Assembly (NCBI GenBank): GCA_015075375.1
Contig: JABTUM010000002.1
Span: forward strand, 853,393-917,392
Reading direction: 5' to 3'
Length of the DNA stretch: 64,000 bases
Source: Planctomycetota bacterium
GTDB taxonomy: Bacteria; Planctomycetota; SZUA-567; H5-PLA8
A model generated the notes under the pieces. That model was given only the letters and a program-made list of their open reading frames with translations, was not told the origin of the DNA and searched no databases. Of the stretch, positions 4,428-10,206 are shown one piece after another (position 1 is the first letter of the stretch; the number at the start of each line of letters is the position of its first letter). The position numbers and the translations under genes are program-made.

Positions 4428-5504
4428 TCAAGCGCTCTTCACCGGCGGCGCGGCCTCGCGCACCGCGGCGGCCATCTCGCGCAGCAGGGTCTCGGTCTCC
4501 TCGAAACCGATGCAGCCGTCCGTGATCGAGACGCCGTAGGCCAGTTTCGCGCCTTCCTTCCAAGTCTGCTTGCCGGGCTTCAGGTTGCTCTCGAGAGAGA
4601 TGCCCATCAGCCGTCCTTCGCCGGCACGGTACTGCGCGCAGACATCGCGCCAGGCGATGGCCTGCTTCGCCGGATCCTTGGAGCTGTTCCCGTGCGAACA
4701 GTCCACCAGCACCGGCCGGGCGACGCCGCCTTCGGCCGCCAGCGTCGCGGCGCGCTTCACGTCTTCCGTGCCGTAGTTCGTCCGCCCTTCCCCGCCCCGC
4801 AGCACCACGTGGCAGTCGGGATTGCCCGTCGTCTTTACGATGGCCGTGACGCCGACGTTGTTGATGCCCAGAAAACTGTGCGCTTGCCGGGCCGATACCA
4901 GCGCGTTCACCGCCGCCTGGAGCGTCCCGTCGATCCCGTTCTTGAAGCCCACGGGCATCGAAAGCCCGCTGGCCATCTGCCGGTGCGTCTGGCTCTCGGT
5001 CGTGCGCGCCCCAATCGCCGCCCAACTTACAAGGTCTGCGATGTACTGCGGCGTGATCGGCTCCAGGAATTCCGTCGCGCAGGCCATGCCCAGCGCGTTG
5101 ATCTTGACCAACAACCCCCGCGCCACCTCCAGGCCGATGGCGATATCGCAGGAACCGTCCAGATGCGGATCGTTGATCAGTCCCTTCCAGCCTACCGTGG
5201 TGCGCGGCTTCTCGAAATACGTCCGCATCAGCACCACCACTTCGCCCCGAATCTCGTGGGCCACCTGCTTGAGGCGCGTGGCGTAGTCGATCGCGGCCTC
5301 CGGGTCGTGGATCGAGCACGGGCCCACGATGGCCGCCAGCCGCCGCGTATCCCGGCCGTGGATGATGTCGCGCAACTCACGCCGCGTGGTGCGCACCGTC
5401 TCCGCCGCCTGCTCGTTGAGCGGAAACTTGGACTTCACTTGAGCCGGGGACTCCAGCGGACGCATCTCCGCGATACGTACGTTTTCCAGCCGTTCGCCTT
5501 GCAT
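4428..5504 (-). CDS. 3-deoxy-7-phosphoheptulonate (DAHP) synthase, class I (AroG/AroF/AroH type).
   Basis: It matches E. coli AroG strongly (IVGPCSIHD, YFEKPRTTVGWKGLINDPH, GARTTESQTHRQMASGLSMPVGFKNG, ILRGG). The start is trimmed to the ATG (MQGERLENV...) with a GGGAG RBS 7 nt upstream. The ORF-track start (TTG at 5564) lies inside the terminator U-tract. Confidence 0.88.
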   Translation of the reverse strand: MQGERLENVRIAEMRPLESPAQVKSKFPLNEQAAETVRTTRRELRDIIHGRDTRRLAAIVGPCSIHDPEAAIDYATRLKQVAHEIRGEVVVLMRTYFEKPRTTVGWKGLINDPHLDGSCDIAIGLEVARGLLVKINALGMACATEFLEPITPQYIADLVSWAAIGARTTESQTHRQMASGLSMPVGFKNGIDGTLQAAVNALVSARQAHSFLGINNVGVTAIVKTTGNPDCHVVLRGGEGRTNYGTEDVKRAATLAAEGGVARPVLVDCSHGNSSKDPAKQAIAWRDVCAQYRAGEGRLMGISLESNLKPGKQTWKEGAKLAYGVSITDGCIGFEETETLLREMAAAVREAAPPVKSA

Positions 5505-5562
5505 CTGCACACTCCCAGGTTGATCCCGCCGCGGCCGCCTAGCTTTCCCATCCCGCGGGCAC

Positions 5563-5590
5563 AAAAAAAGCCCTGAGGATCGCTCAGGGC
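5563..5590 (-). terminator. Intrinsic terminator (attenuator) in the DAHP synthase leader, reading on the minus strand as GCCCTGAG-cgatc-CTCAGGGC followed by TTTTTTT.
   Basis: It has an 8-bp GC stem, a 5-nt loop and a 7-U tract. It lies 60 nt upstream of the aroG-type ATG and downstream of the leader uORF. Confidence 0.6.
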
Positions 5591-5617
5591 TTTGGGGTTC
5601 TGTTCTCGTTCCGGCTT

Positions 5618-5695
5618 CTACGCAGCACCCCTCCGCCCTGGCTGTCGCCAGCCAAAGTAGGAATACCCAAAATAGAAGCCCGTCCGCACGTTCAC
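5618..5695 (-). CDS. Leader peptide MNVRTGFYFGYSYFGWRQPGRRGAA (GTG start), rich in aromatic residues.
   Basis: GTG at 5695 with a GAGGG 7 nt upstream, and a TAG stop at 5620-5618. Seven of ten consecutive codons are Phe, Tyr or Trp. It lies between a promoter-like element and the terminator in front of DAHP synthase. Confidence 0.5.
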   Translation of the reverse strand: MNVRTGFYFGYSYFGWRQPGRRGAA

Positions 5696-5715
5696 GCTAA
5701 AGCCCTCACAGGAGG

Positions 5716-5745
5716 ATACTTACCACCGGCCGGGCGGTCTGTCAA
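5716..5745 (-). promoter_or_regulatory. Sigma70-like promoter on the minus strand: TTGACA, a 17-nt spacer, then TAAGTA(T).
   Basis: The -35 hexamer is a perfect consensus. The -10 is a weak A2/T6-type match. It is positioned about 20 nt upstream of the leader uORF. Confidence 0.35.
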
Positions 5746-5763: not shown

Positions 5764-5790
5764 CAAAAAAACCGGCCCGAAGGCCGGTTC
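5764..5790 (-). terminator. Intrinsic terminator for the beta-barrel/decaheme operon: CCGGCC-ttcg-GGCCGG followed by TTTTTTT on the minus strand. It also forms a hairpin plus TTCTTT on the plus strand.
   Basis: It lies 30 nt downstream of the TAG stop at 5821-5823. It has a perfect GC stem and a 7-U tract. Confidence 0.6.
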
Positions 5791-5820: not shown

Positions 5821-8800
5821 CTATTCGCCCTTCAGCTTCTTCAGTTCCTGCTCGATCTTGCGCTTCTTGATCGGGTTCTTCTCGTTCGCCAAGGCCGCTT
5901 CCAACTCCTTGATCTTCTCGGCGTTGGCGCCGGCGCTGGCTTCCTTGATCTTCTTCTCCAGATCCTCGATGTCCTTCTGGATCTTGCGCTTCTTGATCGG
6001 GTTCTTTTCCTTCTCCAGGTCGGCCTTCAACGCTTCCAGCTTCGCTTCCAGTTCGGCCGTACCGCCGCCCGCGGCCTTCATCTCCAGCGGCTCGCCCGGG
6101 GGCTCGTTGGCGACGGAGAAGAACTGGCCGTCGAGCATGTACATCGCCTCCATTTCCTTCTTGTTGAAGGGCCGCGAACCGACGCGGTTGAAGACGCTGA
6201 GCTGATTGCCGCTCTCGTCCACCGCACGGTCGCGCTGGAGGCCTTCGCTGATGTTCAGCGCCACGCCCGGCAGGTCCTTCTTGGCGATGAGGAACGGCTT
6301 CGGTTCCGGCGACCAGCCTTCGAAGTTGGGTACCGTTTCGGGCGAGGTGAGCTGCACCACCGCCAGCCCGCGCTTACCGTTGGCCAGGTAGGCGAAGGAA
6401 GAGGTGTTGGTCATGCCCAGCTTCACGTCGCGGACGTCGTTCAGCCAGCCGTCGCCCGTGAACTTGGTGAAGAGCTTCGGCGCTTCGGCGTGTTCGATGT
6501 CCACGATCGCCAGACCTTCCGCGCCCGCCGCCACGTAGGCGTACGTGCGCGCCAAGTACAGGCTGTGCGCGTTCTGGAACGGCACCGTCGCGCCTTCGAC
6601 CAGCCGAGGTTTGTCGGGGTGCGTGATGTCGATCACCTTCAGGCCGTCGGCGTCCAGCACGAAGGCGTAGCGGAACTGGATGCGTACCGCGCGCGGCTTG
6701 TTCAGCGGCACCACGCTCAGCACCTTCAGTTCGTCCGGATTCGGCGCGCGCGCCTCCTCCACGACCTTCTTGATCTCCAGCTTCTTCTTGCCGTCCGGAT
6801 TCATCTTCAGCGCCGCTTCCACCAGCTCGGTGCCGATCTTGCTGATGTCCACGCAGACCAGGCCCGCATCGCTGCAGACCCACAAATTGGTCCCGGCCAC
6901 GATCCCGTGCGTGGAGCCCGTGAGCACCCCGTTGGGATTGAAGGTCAGATGGCGTTCGAGGAAGTTGTTCGTCGGATCGCCGTCCAGCAGCGTCGCGGCG
7001 TTGATCGTGAAGAGCCCTTCCTCGCGGTCCAGACAGTACAGGAACGCGTAGATCGGATGGATGCCCTGCTCCTGGTTCAACGGATCGCGGGGCATGAACG
7101 GAACCTGCCGCGTCGGGTCGACGCCCAGGACCGTCGGGCTGATCACCTGCGTGCAGTCCTTCGACTTCACGTACATGCGCTGGCCCAGCGGGCTGACCGG
7201 CGCGGTGCTGATGCGCTGGCTGAAGCCCTTGTTGTCGATGTTCGCGACGTCGTAGATCGTCACGCCGCCGCCCCCGCGCGCCGCGTACAGATATTCGCCG
7301 CGGAGCTGGAGCTGCTTCACCGTGCCGTACTTGCCGTACTCGTGTTCCAGCGACATGTCGCGCTCCAAGTGCTCGGCGTAGCGCTCGCGGAACGCGTCGC
7401 GGTGCAGCGTGCTGCCAATCACCGCTTGCGGCTCATCCTGTTCCGTCACCACCACCGCATGCGTGCCGCCGTCGTCACAGGCCACATAGACGTAGCGGTA
7501 CATGAAGTTGGTCGTGTTCGTGCCCAGCATCAGGACCTGCGACATCCAGGCGTTGTTGTCGCCGGCCTTGCTGACGTGGCAGTCGACGCACATCTTGGTT
7601 TCGCCGGCCCCGCGCACCGCGTGCGGATAGTGCGGGCTGAACGCCTGGCCGCTGAAGCCTTCGGCGCTGACCGTCTGCTGCTGGCTGTAGATCCACTCGC
7701 GCTGAGCGTTCTGCGAACCGACGATCACGGCGCAGGCCGAGCGGACCGGGGCGACCTTGTTGCCCTTGACCGTGCCGTCCAGACCCAGCATGAAGACGTC
7801 GCCGCGCAGCGTCTGCCAGTTGTACTGCGTCCAGTTGCGGCTGTGCGCGCCTTCGTAGTGGATGTTGTCGCGGTTCTGGTTCGCGCGCATCGGCAAGTGA
7901 CAGCCGAAGCACGAAGCCATCCACGACGTATGGCAGGTGTAACAGTCCATCTTCTCGGTCTTGTGCGCCAGGACGCTGGGGTCTTCCGGCACGTCGCCCC
8001 AAGTTTTGTTGTCCTTGCGCATCGTCTTGGCCAAGCGCGCCTTTTCGTTGTAGTGCGGATTGCCCGGGGTGATCGTGTCGATCACCTGCGGCACTTCCCA
8101 CTTCACGTTGGCGTCGACGGCCGACTGCTGCATCAACTTCCCGCCCAGCACGCGGAAGCGCTTGCCGAATGGCGTATTGCTCGCCGCCAAGTCCGTGCCG
8201 CCTTCCGGCGCCGCGTTGCCCGTCGTCTTCAGCGTCGCGCGCTTGTAGATCGTTCCGTGGCAGTCCGCGCAGGTGATTTCCGTCGCGTTGCGGACCTCGG
8301 TGTACAATAAGCCGTTGCCGTGGTTGTCGATGTTGAAGTGACAGTCGATGCAGTGCATCCCCTTCTCGAGGTGGATGTCCTGCATGTGCACGGCCGAGCC
8401 CGCGAGCGGCTCACCCTTTTCGCCCTTCTTGAATTTATTGGGCGCATCGTGCGCAACCTGCTTGCCGTCCTTGTCCAACAGGTTGCCCTTGCGGTCCATC
8501 TTATAAACGTTTTTATAGAGCCAGCCGTGGCCGTGGTAGTCGGCGAACTGGATCTGCTTGAACTGGTCGTTGCGTTCCCAGACCGACTCCATCCACTCCA
8601 CATCGCCCCAGCGCCCGCGCAGCGCCGCCGCTTCCGGATTGCGGTACTTGATCTTCAGCTCTTCGCGCTCCGACATGTTCGGCAGGTGGCTGTCGAGGTA
8701 CGTCTTGCTGCCTTCGGTCTCGTTGTCGTACCAGGTGTTGCCGTAGTAAGTGACCGTCACCGTCGTGCCGGGGTGCATATGGCAGACAACGCACTGGCTG

Positions 8801-10206
8801 GACGGGATCGAGCGCGTGAAGACGTGTTTGATCGGGTGCCCGCTCGACTTGCCCTTCTCGACCACTTCGCCCTTATCGTTTTCCTTGCCCGCGACGTGGG
8901 CCAGCGTGGCGTCCTTGCTGAAGGAATGCCCGCTCTTGCCGTATTTCGCGTACGGACCGCTGTGCGACGGATCGCGGTCGTTGGCGTAGATGACGTGGCA
9001 GGAACTGCAGCCCGAGCTGCGGTAGTCGCCGGCCTGATCGTTGGTGCCCGGGTGCCAGAGAATCGGGTCGAGCAGGCGCGTCTTCTGCAGGCCCAGGAAG
9101 ACCGGGTCGGTGCTCAGCAAGGTGCCGAAACCGCGGATCGAGAGCTTCAATTCCGGCTTGCCGCTCTCGTCGATTTCCACCTTGCCGGGCGTGATCTGCC
9201 CGATGGGCTGCGCCGTCTCGAGCAGCACGCGGCCGCCGCGCTCGAAGGCGCGCAGCACGTTGCCCGATTGGGTGATGTTGTAGCGCGGCAGCGGGTCCAG
9301 GTACGGCAGGATGCCGCGGTTCTTGATGTCGTCGTTCGTCGGGCGGAAGACTTCCCACTTGCCCGAGTCTTTGTTCTGCTTGAGCGACTGGATCCGCGCG
9401 GGCTTGCCGTCCCACATGTACGCTTCGCCGTAGCGGCCGTACTTCTGGTTGCTCGCGCCGTTGTTGTACAGCGCGGCGTTCCAGAGCATGCCGCCGTGCG
9501 CCATCATGCTGGTGCTAACGCGTTCGAAGTAGCCCGGATGGCAGCCGCCGCAGGTGAACTTCGCCACGCGCAGGTCGCCGGGGTTGATGAAGCGGATGAA
9601 TTCAGGGTCTTCCTTCATCCAGACCGCGCCGGTCCGCTTCGGCCAGGCGCTGGGGTGCTGCCCGCCGTGCGCGCCATGCGAACCGTGGGAACCGTGTGCC
9701 GCCGGCGTATCGCCGTGCGCCGCACCGTGAGCTTCTTCGGTCTTGGCGTGTTCGCCATGTGCATCGCCGGTTTTGGCGGCATGATCGGCCGGAGCCGCGT
9801 GCGCGGCCGGTTCGGCGTGAGCGCTGCCGTGGTCGTCGTGCTTCGGACCGACCAGCCCATGGTGGCCGATGTGGTACCACGGACCGCGGGCCTGTACGTG
9901 GGCTTCTTCCTTTGTCGTTGCCTGCCCGTTGCCGCCGTGGCAGTCGGCGCAGCCGATCTTGACCGCCTCGGACGCGTGCATGCTCGGGTTTTCGATCCCG
10001 ACGTGGCAACTCATACAGCCGGCGGACTTCTTGAGCACGTCTTCGTCGGATTGCGTCGTGGGAACGGACGTCATCCGGGGTTCGGGCGGGAAGTCCGAGC
10101 CTTTATCGTAGTACAAGTCGGCCGGGTGGTCACAACCCGTGCCCAAGGCCAACGCCGCCAGAAGCAGCGAGCCGCCCAACCAGGAAAGTTTGCGCATCCG
10201 TCCCAT
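5821..10206 (-). CDS. Decaheme c-type cytochrome lipoprotein fused to an LVIVD-repeat beta-propeller, with a C-terminal Lys-rich coiled-coil tail.
   Basis: It has a lipoprotein signal peptide (LLLAALALGTGC). Ten CxxCH motifs are present (CMSCH, CADCH, CGGCH, CSSCH, CVVCH, CIDCH, CADCH, CYTCH, CFGCH, CVDCH). LVIVD-type repeats follow (VTIYDVANID, LVCVDISK, LKVIDITHPDKP, LAIVDIEHAEAPK, LAVVQLTSPE). The tail contains a duplicated EKNPIKKRKI motif. Confidence 0.8.
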   Translation of the reverse strand: MGRMRKLSWLGGSLLLAALALGTGCDHPADLYYDKGSDFPPEPRMTSVPTTQSDEDVLKKSAGCMSCHVGIENPSMHASEAVKIGCADCHGGNGQATTKEEAHVQARGPWYHIGHHGLVGPKHDDHGSAHAEPAAHAAPADHAAKTGDAHGEHAKTEEAHGAAHGDTPAAHGSHGSHGAHGGQHPSAWPKRTGAVWMKEDPEFIRFINPGDLRVAKFTCGGCHPGYFERVSTSMMAHGGMLWNAALYNNGASNQKYGRYGEAYMWDGKPARIQSLKQNKDSGKWEVFRPTNDDIKNRGILPYLDPLPRYNITQSGNVLRAFERGGRVLLETAQPIGQITPGKVEIDESGKPELKLSIRGFGTLLSTDPVFLGLQKTRLLDPILWHPGTNDQAGDYRSSGCSSCHVIYANDRDPSHSGPYAKYGKSGHSFSKDATLAHVAGKENDKGEVVEKGKSSGHPIKHVFTRSIPSSQCVVCHMHPGTTVTVTYYGNTWYDNETEGSKTYLDSHLPNMSEREELKIKYRNPEAAALRGRWGDVEWMESVWERNDQFKQIQFADYHGHGWLYKNVYKMDRKGNLLDKDGKQVAHDAPNKFKKGEKGEPLAGSAVHMQDIHLEKGMHCIDCHFNIDNHGNGLLYTEVRNATEITCADCHGTIYKRATLKTTGNAAPEGGTDLAASNTPFGKRFRVLGGKLMQQSAVDANVKWEVPQVIDTITPGNPHYNEKARLAKTMRKDNKTWGDVPEDPSVLAHKTEKMDCYTCHTSWMASCFGCHLPMRANQNRDNIHYEGAHSRNWTQYNWQTLRGDVFMLGLDGTVKGNKVAPVRSACAVIVGSQNAQREWIYSQQQTVSAEGFSGQAFSPHYPHAVRGAGETKMCVDCHVSKAGDNNAWMSQVLMLGTNTTNFMYRYVYVACDDGGTHAVVVTEQDEPQAVIGSTLHRDAFRERYAEHLERDMSLEHEYGKYGTVKQLQLRGEYLYAARGGGGVTIYDVANIDNKGFSQRISTAPVSPLGQRMYVKSKDCTQVISPTVLGVDPTRQVPFMPRDPLNQEQGIHPIYAFLYCLDREEGLFTINAATLLDGDPTNNFLERHLTFNPNGVLTGSTHGIVAGTNLWVCSDAGLVCVDISKIGTELVEAALKMNPDGKKKLEIKKVVEEARAPNPDELKVLSVVPLNKPRAVRIQFRYAFVLDADGLKVIDITHPDKPRLVEGATVPFQNAHSLYLARTYAYVAAGAEGLAIVDIEHAEAPKLFTKFTGDGWLNDVRDVKLGMTNTSSFAYLANGKRGLAVVQLTSPETVPNFEGWSPEPKPFLIAKKDLPGVALNISEGLQRDRAVDESGNQLSVFNRVGSRPFNKKEMEAMYMLDGQFFSVANEPPGEPLEMKAAGGGTAELEAKLEALKADLEKEKNPIKKRKIQKDIEDLEKKIKEASAGANAEKIKELEAALANEKNPIKKRKIEQELKKLKGE
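5846..6007 (-). repeat. In-frame direct DNA repeat (ATCTTGCGCTTCTTGATCGGGTTCTT, two copies) encoding the duplicated KNPIKKRKI motif.
   Basis: Two copies of about 26 bp occur at roughly 5846-5871 and 5982-6007, inside the 3' end of the decaheme CDS. Confidence 0.5.

Follow-up and report, generated by a model that had tools for sequence, protein, structure and literature searches.

Anatomy of the leader

In a 64-kb stretch of DNA from a Planctomycetota bacterium (contig JABTUM010000002.1), termed the window in the following, a gene for 3-deoxy-D-arabino-heptulosonate 7-phosphate (DAHP) synthase (DAHPS) is preceded by a short leader that combines a small upstream open reading frame (uORF), rich in codons for aromatic amino acids, with an intrinsic terminator. 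Here we describe this leader as a candidate transcription attenuator and follow it into other genomes. All coordinates refer to the minus strand of the window. A first-pass annotation made from the letters of the DNA had listed promoter hexamers, a Shine-Dalgarno (SD) sequence with a GTG-initiated uORF of 25 codons, a terminator with seven U residues and the DAHPS gene, all of which are present at the positions given below; the antiterminator and the 1:2 hairpin are predicted structures.

4428..5504, minus strand: class I-alpha DAHP synthase (aroFGH type), 358 amino acids, ATG at 5504, SD sequence GGGAG at 5516-5512
5563..5593, minus strand: intrinsic terminator 3:4, AAAGCCCUGAG-CGAUC-CUCAGGGCUUU followed by the U-tract (terminator scan: 11 pairs, 6 of them GC)
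5585..5640, minus strand: antiterminator 2:3, CAGGGC 5640-5635 with GCCCUG 5590-5585 and GGGGU 5631-5627 with ACCCC 5598-5594
5613..5680, minus strand: 1:2 hairpin (anti-antiterminator or pause hairpin), 5' arm of aromatic codons 5680-5649, loop 5648-5645, 3' arm 5644-5613
5618..5695, minus strand: leader peptide uORF, GTG at 5695, 25 codons, UAG at 5620-5618, encoding MNVRTGFYFGYSYFGWRQPGRRGAA*
5648..5677, minus strand: aromatic codon run UUC UAU UUU GGG UAU UCC UAC UUU GGC UGG (FYFGYSYFGW)
5703..5707, minus strand: SD sequence of the uORF, GAGGG, 7 nucleotides (nt) before the GTG
5716..5745, minus strand: promoter-like element, TTGACA 5745-5740, 17-nt spacer, TAAGTA 5722-5717

The promoter-like element can also be read with an 18-nt spacer and AAGTAT at 5721-5716, and transcription is predicted to start at about 5710, leaving the window with a 5' untranslated region of about 14 nt that includes the SD sequence. 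The terminator core consists of GCCCTGAG (5590-5583), the loop CGATC, CTCAGGGC (5577-5570) and seven T residues (5569-5563), which corresponds in the RNA to GCCCUGAG-CGAUC-CUCAGGGC followed by U7, GCCCUGAG being segment 3; the terminator scan extended the stem to 11 pairs (5593-5567). Phe, Tyr or Trp is encoded by 7 of the 10 codons of the aromatic run, which is the sole stretch of 10 codons with at least seven such codons in the six reading frames of the window, about 0.026 being expected per window from base composition. Among the codons of the leader, TTT and TAT occur two times each and CCA a single time, three codons that are little used in three genes of the window (4/63, 7/64 and 1/114, respectively). 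Two further elements named by the first-pass annotation, a small hairpin GGCUG-GCGA-CAGCC and the complementarity of CCAGGGC to GCCCUG, were likewise found in the leader.

The enzyme encoded downstream scores 459.9 bits on the aroFGH model TIGR00034 (cut-off 173.2) and stays below the cut-offs specific for AroG and for AroH. A protein with 100% identity is encoded in a Planctomycetes metagenome-assembled genome (MAG), and the DAHPS gene of the window is monocistronic.

Conservation of the leader upstream of DAHPS genes

Relatives were collected in two ways. The first used the protein, by retrieval of the contigs of the closest relatives of the window's DAHPS (64-82% identical). A homologous leader lies upstream of every close relative for which upstream DNA is available, and the neighbouring genes differ. 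The leader peptides read MQARNGFYFEYFYFAWRRPGRRGAA (L001), MSKACRFYYGYFTCAWPRPGLRDAA (L002), MSIACGFYYGYFTYPWRGPGPRVAT (L003), MNVRNASGYYFYSFSYPWRDPGLRELT (L007) and MSVSTGCRFYAYFSYPWQGPGPKETA (L008); each of these five has an upstream TTGACA and a GCCCUGAG/CUCAGGG terminator with a different loop. In the relatives found via the protein, TTGACA is located 27-55 nt upstream of the uORF start (6/6). The second way used the leader only, by scanning metagenome contigs with the DNA pattern CTGG-N6-CCAGGG-N35-60-GCCCTGAG-N3-7-CTCAGG. Fifty-one loci were obtained, and where at least 150 nt of downstream sequence is present (46 loci), a DAHPS gene starts within about 100 nt in all but one; these enzymes are about 47-80% identical to that of the window. 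The occurrence of an F/Y/W-rich uORF upstream of DAHPS orthologues, which the first-pass annotation had put forward as a test, is thus borne out both by the close relatives and by the metagenome loci.

The single exception, L122, carries a gene for tryptophan-tRNA ligase (TIGR00233, 294 bits) at L122:185-1159 (trpS), preceded by the leader at L122:29-170, in which the CCAGGGC/GCCCUGAG/CUCAGGGC segments are identical to those of the family. Its peptide, MVAGGSFHSWCFSYRWWSPGLRDTA, keeps three Trp codons and has three Phe/Tyr codons, as compared with five or six in its nearest DAHPS-linked leaders, L101, L103 and L129, a codon content that fits codon-based sensing without proving it.

A hidden Markov model (HMM) of the leader matches the window only once. 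Applied upstream of distant DAHPS genes sampled from GTDB genomes, it gave, among the matches listed, only a weak full-length match in a Devosia MAG; the underlying scan of genome contigs with the DAHPS alignment had returned mostly distant enzymes and one close relative among the matches listed. Members from Planctomycetota are the window, L001, L002, L007, L008 and L094, and those from Myxococcota/Polyangia form the large MQRHPAFFGYFSYTWWKPGPRGLV group, assigned by way of a protein from a Polyangia MAG with 89% identity. All 50 leaders compared retain the reading frame of the uORF, its start codon and a stop codon so placed that segment 2 is masked; an SD sequence was read in the window and a few other members only. 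Whereas the loop of the terminator differs among relatives, CCAGGGC, GCCCUGAG and CUCAGGGC do not change.

Predicted alternative pairing and ribosome position

For the free leader of the window, both the minimum free energy (MFE) structure and the centroid consist of the terminator and a long hairpin of the 1:2 type at 5680-5613, formed by the aromatic codons together with the 3' portion of the uORF. The 5-bp hairpin that had been taken as the 1:2 structure by the first-pass annotation does exist; the 1:2 structure of the window is nevertheless the long hairpin, which does not outcompete 2:3 in many members of the family. When the 2-3 region of the window is folded alone, it forms an imperfect antiterminator hairpin of -24.8 kcal/mol, and this architecture is the MFE structure of the 2-3 region in 35/35 distinct sequences folded, with inner helices that differ among relatives (GGGGU/ACCCC, GGGAU/AUCCC, GACUGC/GCAGUC, GACUCG/CGAAGUC). 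In a covariation alignment (A5) that was anchored by hand at both ends, the pair adjoining the helix fixed by the search pattern covaries (CG 12, UA 8, UG 5), and the covariation score was 0.116 as compared with 0.083 +/- 0.009 in shuffles (0/500), all slid registers being worse, although the kinship of the sequences inflates tests of this kind. Covariation in 2:3 therefore appears supportive but modest. RNAalifold on the 2-3 and 1-2 sub-alignments returned only the stems fixed by the pattern and was dropped as a covariation test.

The influence of a translating ribosome was modelled by forcing the nucleotides from A-15 to A+12 around each A-site codon to be unpaired and by calculating P(2:3), the probability that the six CAGGGC:GCCCUG pairs form in a transcript that stops short of the 3' arm of the terminator. 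An earlier read-out, in which segment 3 was scored as paired with anything, was discarded as non-discriminating because promoter DNA had been included and GC-rich RNA always finds partners. The mean P(2:3) of the 50 leaders amounts to 0.87-1.00 when one of codons -5 to -1 (counted from the invariant UGG) occupies the A-site, to 0.29 for the Trp codon, to 0 for later codons and to 0.03 for the stop codon. In the window, where P(2:3) was computed from the predicted transcription start, the value is 0.00 without ribosome, the 1:2 hairpin dominating the free RNA; it rises to 0.7-0.9 with the A-site on UCC 5662, UAC 5659, UUU 5656 or GGC 5653, ranges from 0 to 0.5, by assumed footprint, at UGG 5650, and is 0 at the stop codon. 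A stall on the first three aromatic codons leaves segment 2 unreleased. Folding thus reveals a structure competing with the terminator, as had been anticipated in the first-pass annotation, and in the window it forms in silico only with the ribosome on the late Phe/Tyr codons. UAC 5659 and UUU 5656 are the predicted regulatory codons; in the model, a ribosome halted on UCC 5662 or GGC 5653, neither of them aromatic, has the same effect.

The same calculation bears on the idea, also part of the first-pass annotation, that all three aromatic end-products are sensed at once. For the window this is not supported: a stall on the Trp codon masks the antiterminator, and sensing of Trp seems doubtful because 10 nt separate the sole Trp codon from segment 2 and this codon makes up the apex of the 1:2 hairpin (CUGG/CCAG). 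Trp may be sensed in subgroups that have a Trp codon at position -6 or a WW pair. Trp at +1 (WW pair) occurs in 23/50 leaders and a Trp codon at -6 in one subgroup.

Selection on codons and on RNA, and competing explanations

At codons -8, -7, -5, -4 and -2 of the 50 leaders, Phe or Tyr is encoded in 82, 76, 90, 96 and 90% of cases, respectively. TTC, TTT, TAC and TAT all occur at -8, -7, -5 and -2, non-aromatic codons being rare, and since all four codons interchange, selection acts on aromatic identity and the frame is read. A second layer of constraint is visible further downstream, where CCAGGGC is invariant although the encoded residues around it vary. In L094 and L104 the uORF ends directly after W-R and CCAGGG is kept untranslated; the C-terminus of the peptide is therefore dispensable and the RNA is not. 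As a separate observation, the nucleotides UAC-UUU-AGC-UAU of codons -5 to -2 (alignment A2; window 5665-5654) are nearly invariant in Planctomycetota, in Polyangia and in the Devosia look-alike described below.

These two layers have to be weighed against other functions of the element. It could be an RNA switch in which CCAGGGC, GCCCUGAG and UACUUUAGCUAU form the binding site of a regulatory protein or a metabolite and the open reading frame is incidental. Stem sequences that are invariant across phyla and show little covariation would suit such a switch, as would codon -4, which is UUU in 46/50 leaders although no pairing partner explains it and UUC is by far the preferred Phe codon in the window's genes (59/63). 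Frame, start codon and the masking stop are kept throughout, however, aromatic identity is maintained through nucleotide changes, and invariance of the stems is expected because each segment has two alternative partners. At gathering score, Rfam matched neither 10 related loci nor the 64-kb window, where no known RNA of any kind, tRNA and riboswitch included, was recorded. A T-box or riboswitch was rejected. We regard a binding switch as unlikely.

The conserved peptide could alternatively act as a TnaC-like arrest sensor, the sequence aromatic-...-W-x-x-P-G stalling the ribosome in response to a free aromatic amino acid. The Trp codon is invariant, Pro-Gly three codons later is nearly so (48/50), and a core Y-F-[ST]-Y-P-W is strongly conserved across phyla. 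Pro-Gly is, however, always encoded by CCA GGG, with CCA as the rarest Pro codon, which points to a constraint on the RNA, in line with the two leaders that end at W-R; F and Y swap freely at conserved positions; and a ribosome arrested on the Trp codon or beyond it would cover the antiterminator and turn a biosynthetic gene off. A sensor of this type is therefore very improbable. The chances are slimmer again that the uORF is a free-standing micropeptide gene with no part in the control of DAHPS. It does have its own promoter-like site, SD sequence and terminator, but it is linked to DAHPS in 45/46 loci despite different neighbours, the 58 nt that follow the terminator contain no evident promoter of the DAHPS gene's own, and the C-terminal half of the peptide is variable or cut short although the nucleotides encoding it are conserved. 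A chance co-occurrence of an aromatic-rich open reading frame and a terminator, compatible as it is with a weak folding z-score and with terminator-like hairpins being as common in shuffles, is effectively refuted by the rarity of such aromatic runs and by conservation of the element in more than 50 loci from two phyla.

Proposed mechanism

We conclude that the leader is, with a high degree of probability, a classical ribosome-mediated (leader-peptide) transcription attenuator of the DAHPS gene. The 1:2 / 2:3 / 3:4 layout, already proposed in the first-pass annotation, draws its support from the conservation of the element and from its alternative folding. From this anatomy we infer where transcription starts, that the uORF is translated, and that termination and a response to starvation take place. 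Transcription would start at about 5710, and a ribosome would translate the 25-codon uORF close behind RNA polymerase. When Phe-tRNA and Tyr-tRNA are well charged, the ribosome would reach the UAG at 5620 and cover segment 2 (CAGGGC...GGGGU, 5640-5627), so that segments 3 and 4 form the terminator and transcription ends in the U-tract 5569-5563. When charging with Phe or Tyr is low, it would stall late in the aromatic run, above all on UAC 5659 and UUU 5656, masking segment 1 and leaving segment 2 free to pair with segment 3 ahead of the synthesis of segment 4; the terminator would be pre-empted and the DAHPS gene transcribed. Without translation, the long 1:2 hairpin 5680-5613 would sequester segment 2, and termination would follow.

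Several points weigh against attenuation or limit what can be derived from folding. At equilibrium, the terminator of the full-length leader has a probability of 1.00 at any ribosome position; the switch would therefore have to be kinetic, as in trp. The gain in energy by the antiterminator in the truncated window transcript (-9.9 kcal/mol as compared with -5.0 +/- 2.5 in dinucleotide shuffles, 8/300) appears modest, and the covariation evidence is thin because most stems are invariant, in part imposed by the search pattern. The 1:2 hairpin is not family-wide: in the modelled free RNA, P(2:3) is below 0.1 in 16/50 leaders and above 0.8 in 22/50, the latter forming 2:3 without a ribosome. One variant of the leader (L004-L006) is without an in-frame stop before the terminator. 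The 3-kb region contains three terminator-like matches, as compared with 3.0 expected in shuffles, and the whole-leader MFE has a z-score of -1.51, with 17/200 shuffles folding equally well; the significance of the element comes from its conservation and not from folding energy. A scan with a consensus promoter made no call at 5716-5745, where the -10 hexamer is without T at position 6, and the promoter is thus a motif match only. Finally, coupling of transcription and translation in these organisms is assumed by the mechanism.

Comparison with known leaders

The first-pass annotation had described attenuation of a DAHPS gene by a leader peptide of mixed Phe, Tyr and Trp content as unusual, a view that has to be corrected. 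In Corynebacterium glutamicum, the leader aroR, which contains Phe-Tyr-Phe and precedes the DAHPS gene aroF, was first inferred from RNA-seq (PMC4046766) and, according to Neshat 2014 in the summary given by PMC11802643, increases transcription of aroF when Phe is limiting (also PMC7356990). The window leader resembles aroR in the enzyme regulated, in a short open reading frame with mixed Phe/Tyr codons and in the proposed logic of ribosome stalling and read-through; response to Phe limitation is experimentally established for aroR. The likeness is one of functional analogy. The two differ in that aroR belongs to Actinobacteria and has an aromatic run of 3 codons as compared with 5-8 here, and in that the present family has an invariant Trp codon in the 1:2 apex together with the CCAGGGC/GCCCUGAG core. 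Searches of the literature for a leader or attenuator of aroF, aroG or aroH matched only the work on C. glutamicum; older comparative papers (Vitreschak; Lopatovskaya and colleagues) may list similar candidates. The statement of the first-pass annotation that the DAHPS genes of enterobacteria are controlled by repressors agrees with the literature (PMC5343134).

Among the Rfam models, searched with the element at E values up to 10, only that of the pheL-pheA leader (RF01859, Phe_leader) gave a match, which was below threshold. It is the only model aligning over the full length of the element (model 1-125 at 5561-5692), and with 18.0 bits as compared with a gathering score of 55 (E = 2.5) the window leader is not a member. 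Both leaders have aromatic (in pheL, Phe) codons, a 1:2 / 2:3 / 3:4 pairing, which is predicted for the window, and an intrinsic terminator, whereas pheL contains Phe runs only and regulates chorismate mutase/prephenate dehydratase and not DAHPS. The archetype of the mechanism is represented by trpL-trpEDCBA of Escherichia coli and by the trpL leaders of alpha-proteobacteria and actinobacteria, in which the terminator is thermodynamically favoured, as in the window, and the decision is kinetic, as it would have to be here. The tandem Trp codons of trpL are located about 17 nt before segment 2. For the Trp codon of the window this distance is 10 nt, and sensing would rely on codons for Phe and Tyr. 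TnaC of the tnaCAB operon shares with the present peptides a short length, a conserved Trp and a downstream Pro, but it senses free Trp via the nascent chain and acts on Rho-dependent termination, whereas the terminator here is intrinsic and Pro-Gly is conserved at the RNA level. The trpS-linked leader L122 is comparable to the pheST leader of E. coli, an example of leader-peptide attenuation of an aminoacyl-tRNA synthetase operon (PMC11802643), which belongs to another leader family and contains Phe codons only. The mechanism itself is textbook and not new; the conserved leader family is absent from Rfam.

Divergent leaders, look-alikes and flanking features

The variant without in-frame stop is found at L004:2782-2900 and also in L005 and L006, as a divergent leader (HMM E ~1e-11) upstream of a DAHPS-EPSP synthase pair. 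Its aromatic part reads NFYYAW, CCACACC replaces CCAGGGC, and the open reading frame has 75 codons; an ATG-TGA start-stop overlaps the GTG start, and TAA/TAG is conserved in another frame. In two other relatives (L002:2804-2850 and L003:1507-1548), a -10-like hexamer ends 7 nt before the uORF ATG, and for this reason their leader peptide may be translated from a leaderless or near-leaderless mRNA.

Aromatic-rich uORFs followed by an intrinsic terminator, which look unrelated to the family, were seen about 80-330 nt upstream of the DAHPS start at L060:1283-1460 and in L071, L018, L020, L016 and L084. They fall into five groups (a Devosia MAG, Sorangium, other Myxococcota, a Spirochaetaceae MAG and a Chloroflexota MAG). 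The terminator sequence is particular to each group and is accompanied by a complementary stretch at the 3' end of the uORF. When antiterminator energy was compared with shuffles, only the window and L020 stood out among those tested, and for this reason the look-alikes are not claimed as demonstrated attenuators. Longer aromatic-rich uORFs with no obvious terminator are present in the Dehalococcoidia loci L059, L070 and L087.

Within the window leader, the SD region of the uORF, GAGGGCUUU (5699-5707), is complementary to AAAGCCCU (5586-5593) in the 5' arm of the terminator and resembles the 3' arm CAGGGCUUU. In the truncated free RNA, this long-range helix provides the MFE partner of segment 3; relatives show no clear conservation of it.

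Upstream on the same strand, a gene at 5821-10206 encodes a protein of 1461 amino acids with about ten CxxCH haem-binding motifs and a duplicated lysine-rich motif (EKNPIKKRKI...) at its C-terminus, the latter shared with the L001 orthologue. It is followed by a terminator of its own:

5765..5789, minus strand: terminator of the upstream gene, AACCGGCC-TTCG-GGCCGGTT and a T-run (from the sequence; the hairpin was also seen in sub-threshold Rfam alignments)

Because of this terminator, the leader starts a separate transcription unit, and the possibility that the leader hairpin serves to terminate the upstream gene was rejected.

Implications

The leader described here reveals no new mechanism. 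If it works as proposed, attenuation by a leader peptide at the shikimate pathway's first committed step, which in the literature searched is otherwise documented only in C. glutamicum, also operates in uncultured Planctomycetota and Myxococcota. The leader further provides an alignment of more than 50 sequences, highly conserved, for a family that Rfam lacks, and it can serve as a marker for annotating the regulation of DAHPS in MAGs. The mechanism implies that in these organisms translation is coupled to transcription closely enough for the ribosome to steer the folding of the RNA. On a broader view, the leaders of Planctomycetota and Myxococcota/Polyangia, with the weak full-length match in Devosia, would constitute an undescribed, cross-phylum family of modular and retargetable multi-amino-acid sensors, in which Phe/Tyr codons dominate before DAHPS genes, Trp codons are functional in some subgroups and the trpS copy has been retargeted. 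We put this forward tentatively, as a proposition that falls a little short of an even chance. The trpS-linked copy represents a natural experiment in the retargeting of such sensors, and if the cross-phylum family is real, it would provide direct genomic evidence for tight coupling of transcription and translation in Planctomycetota.

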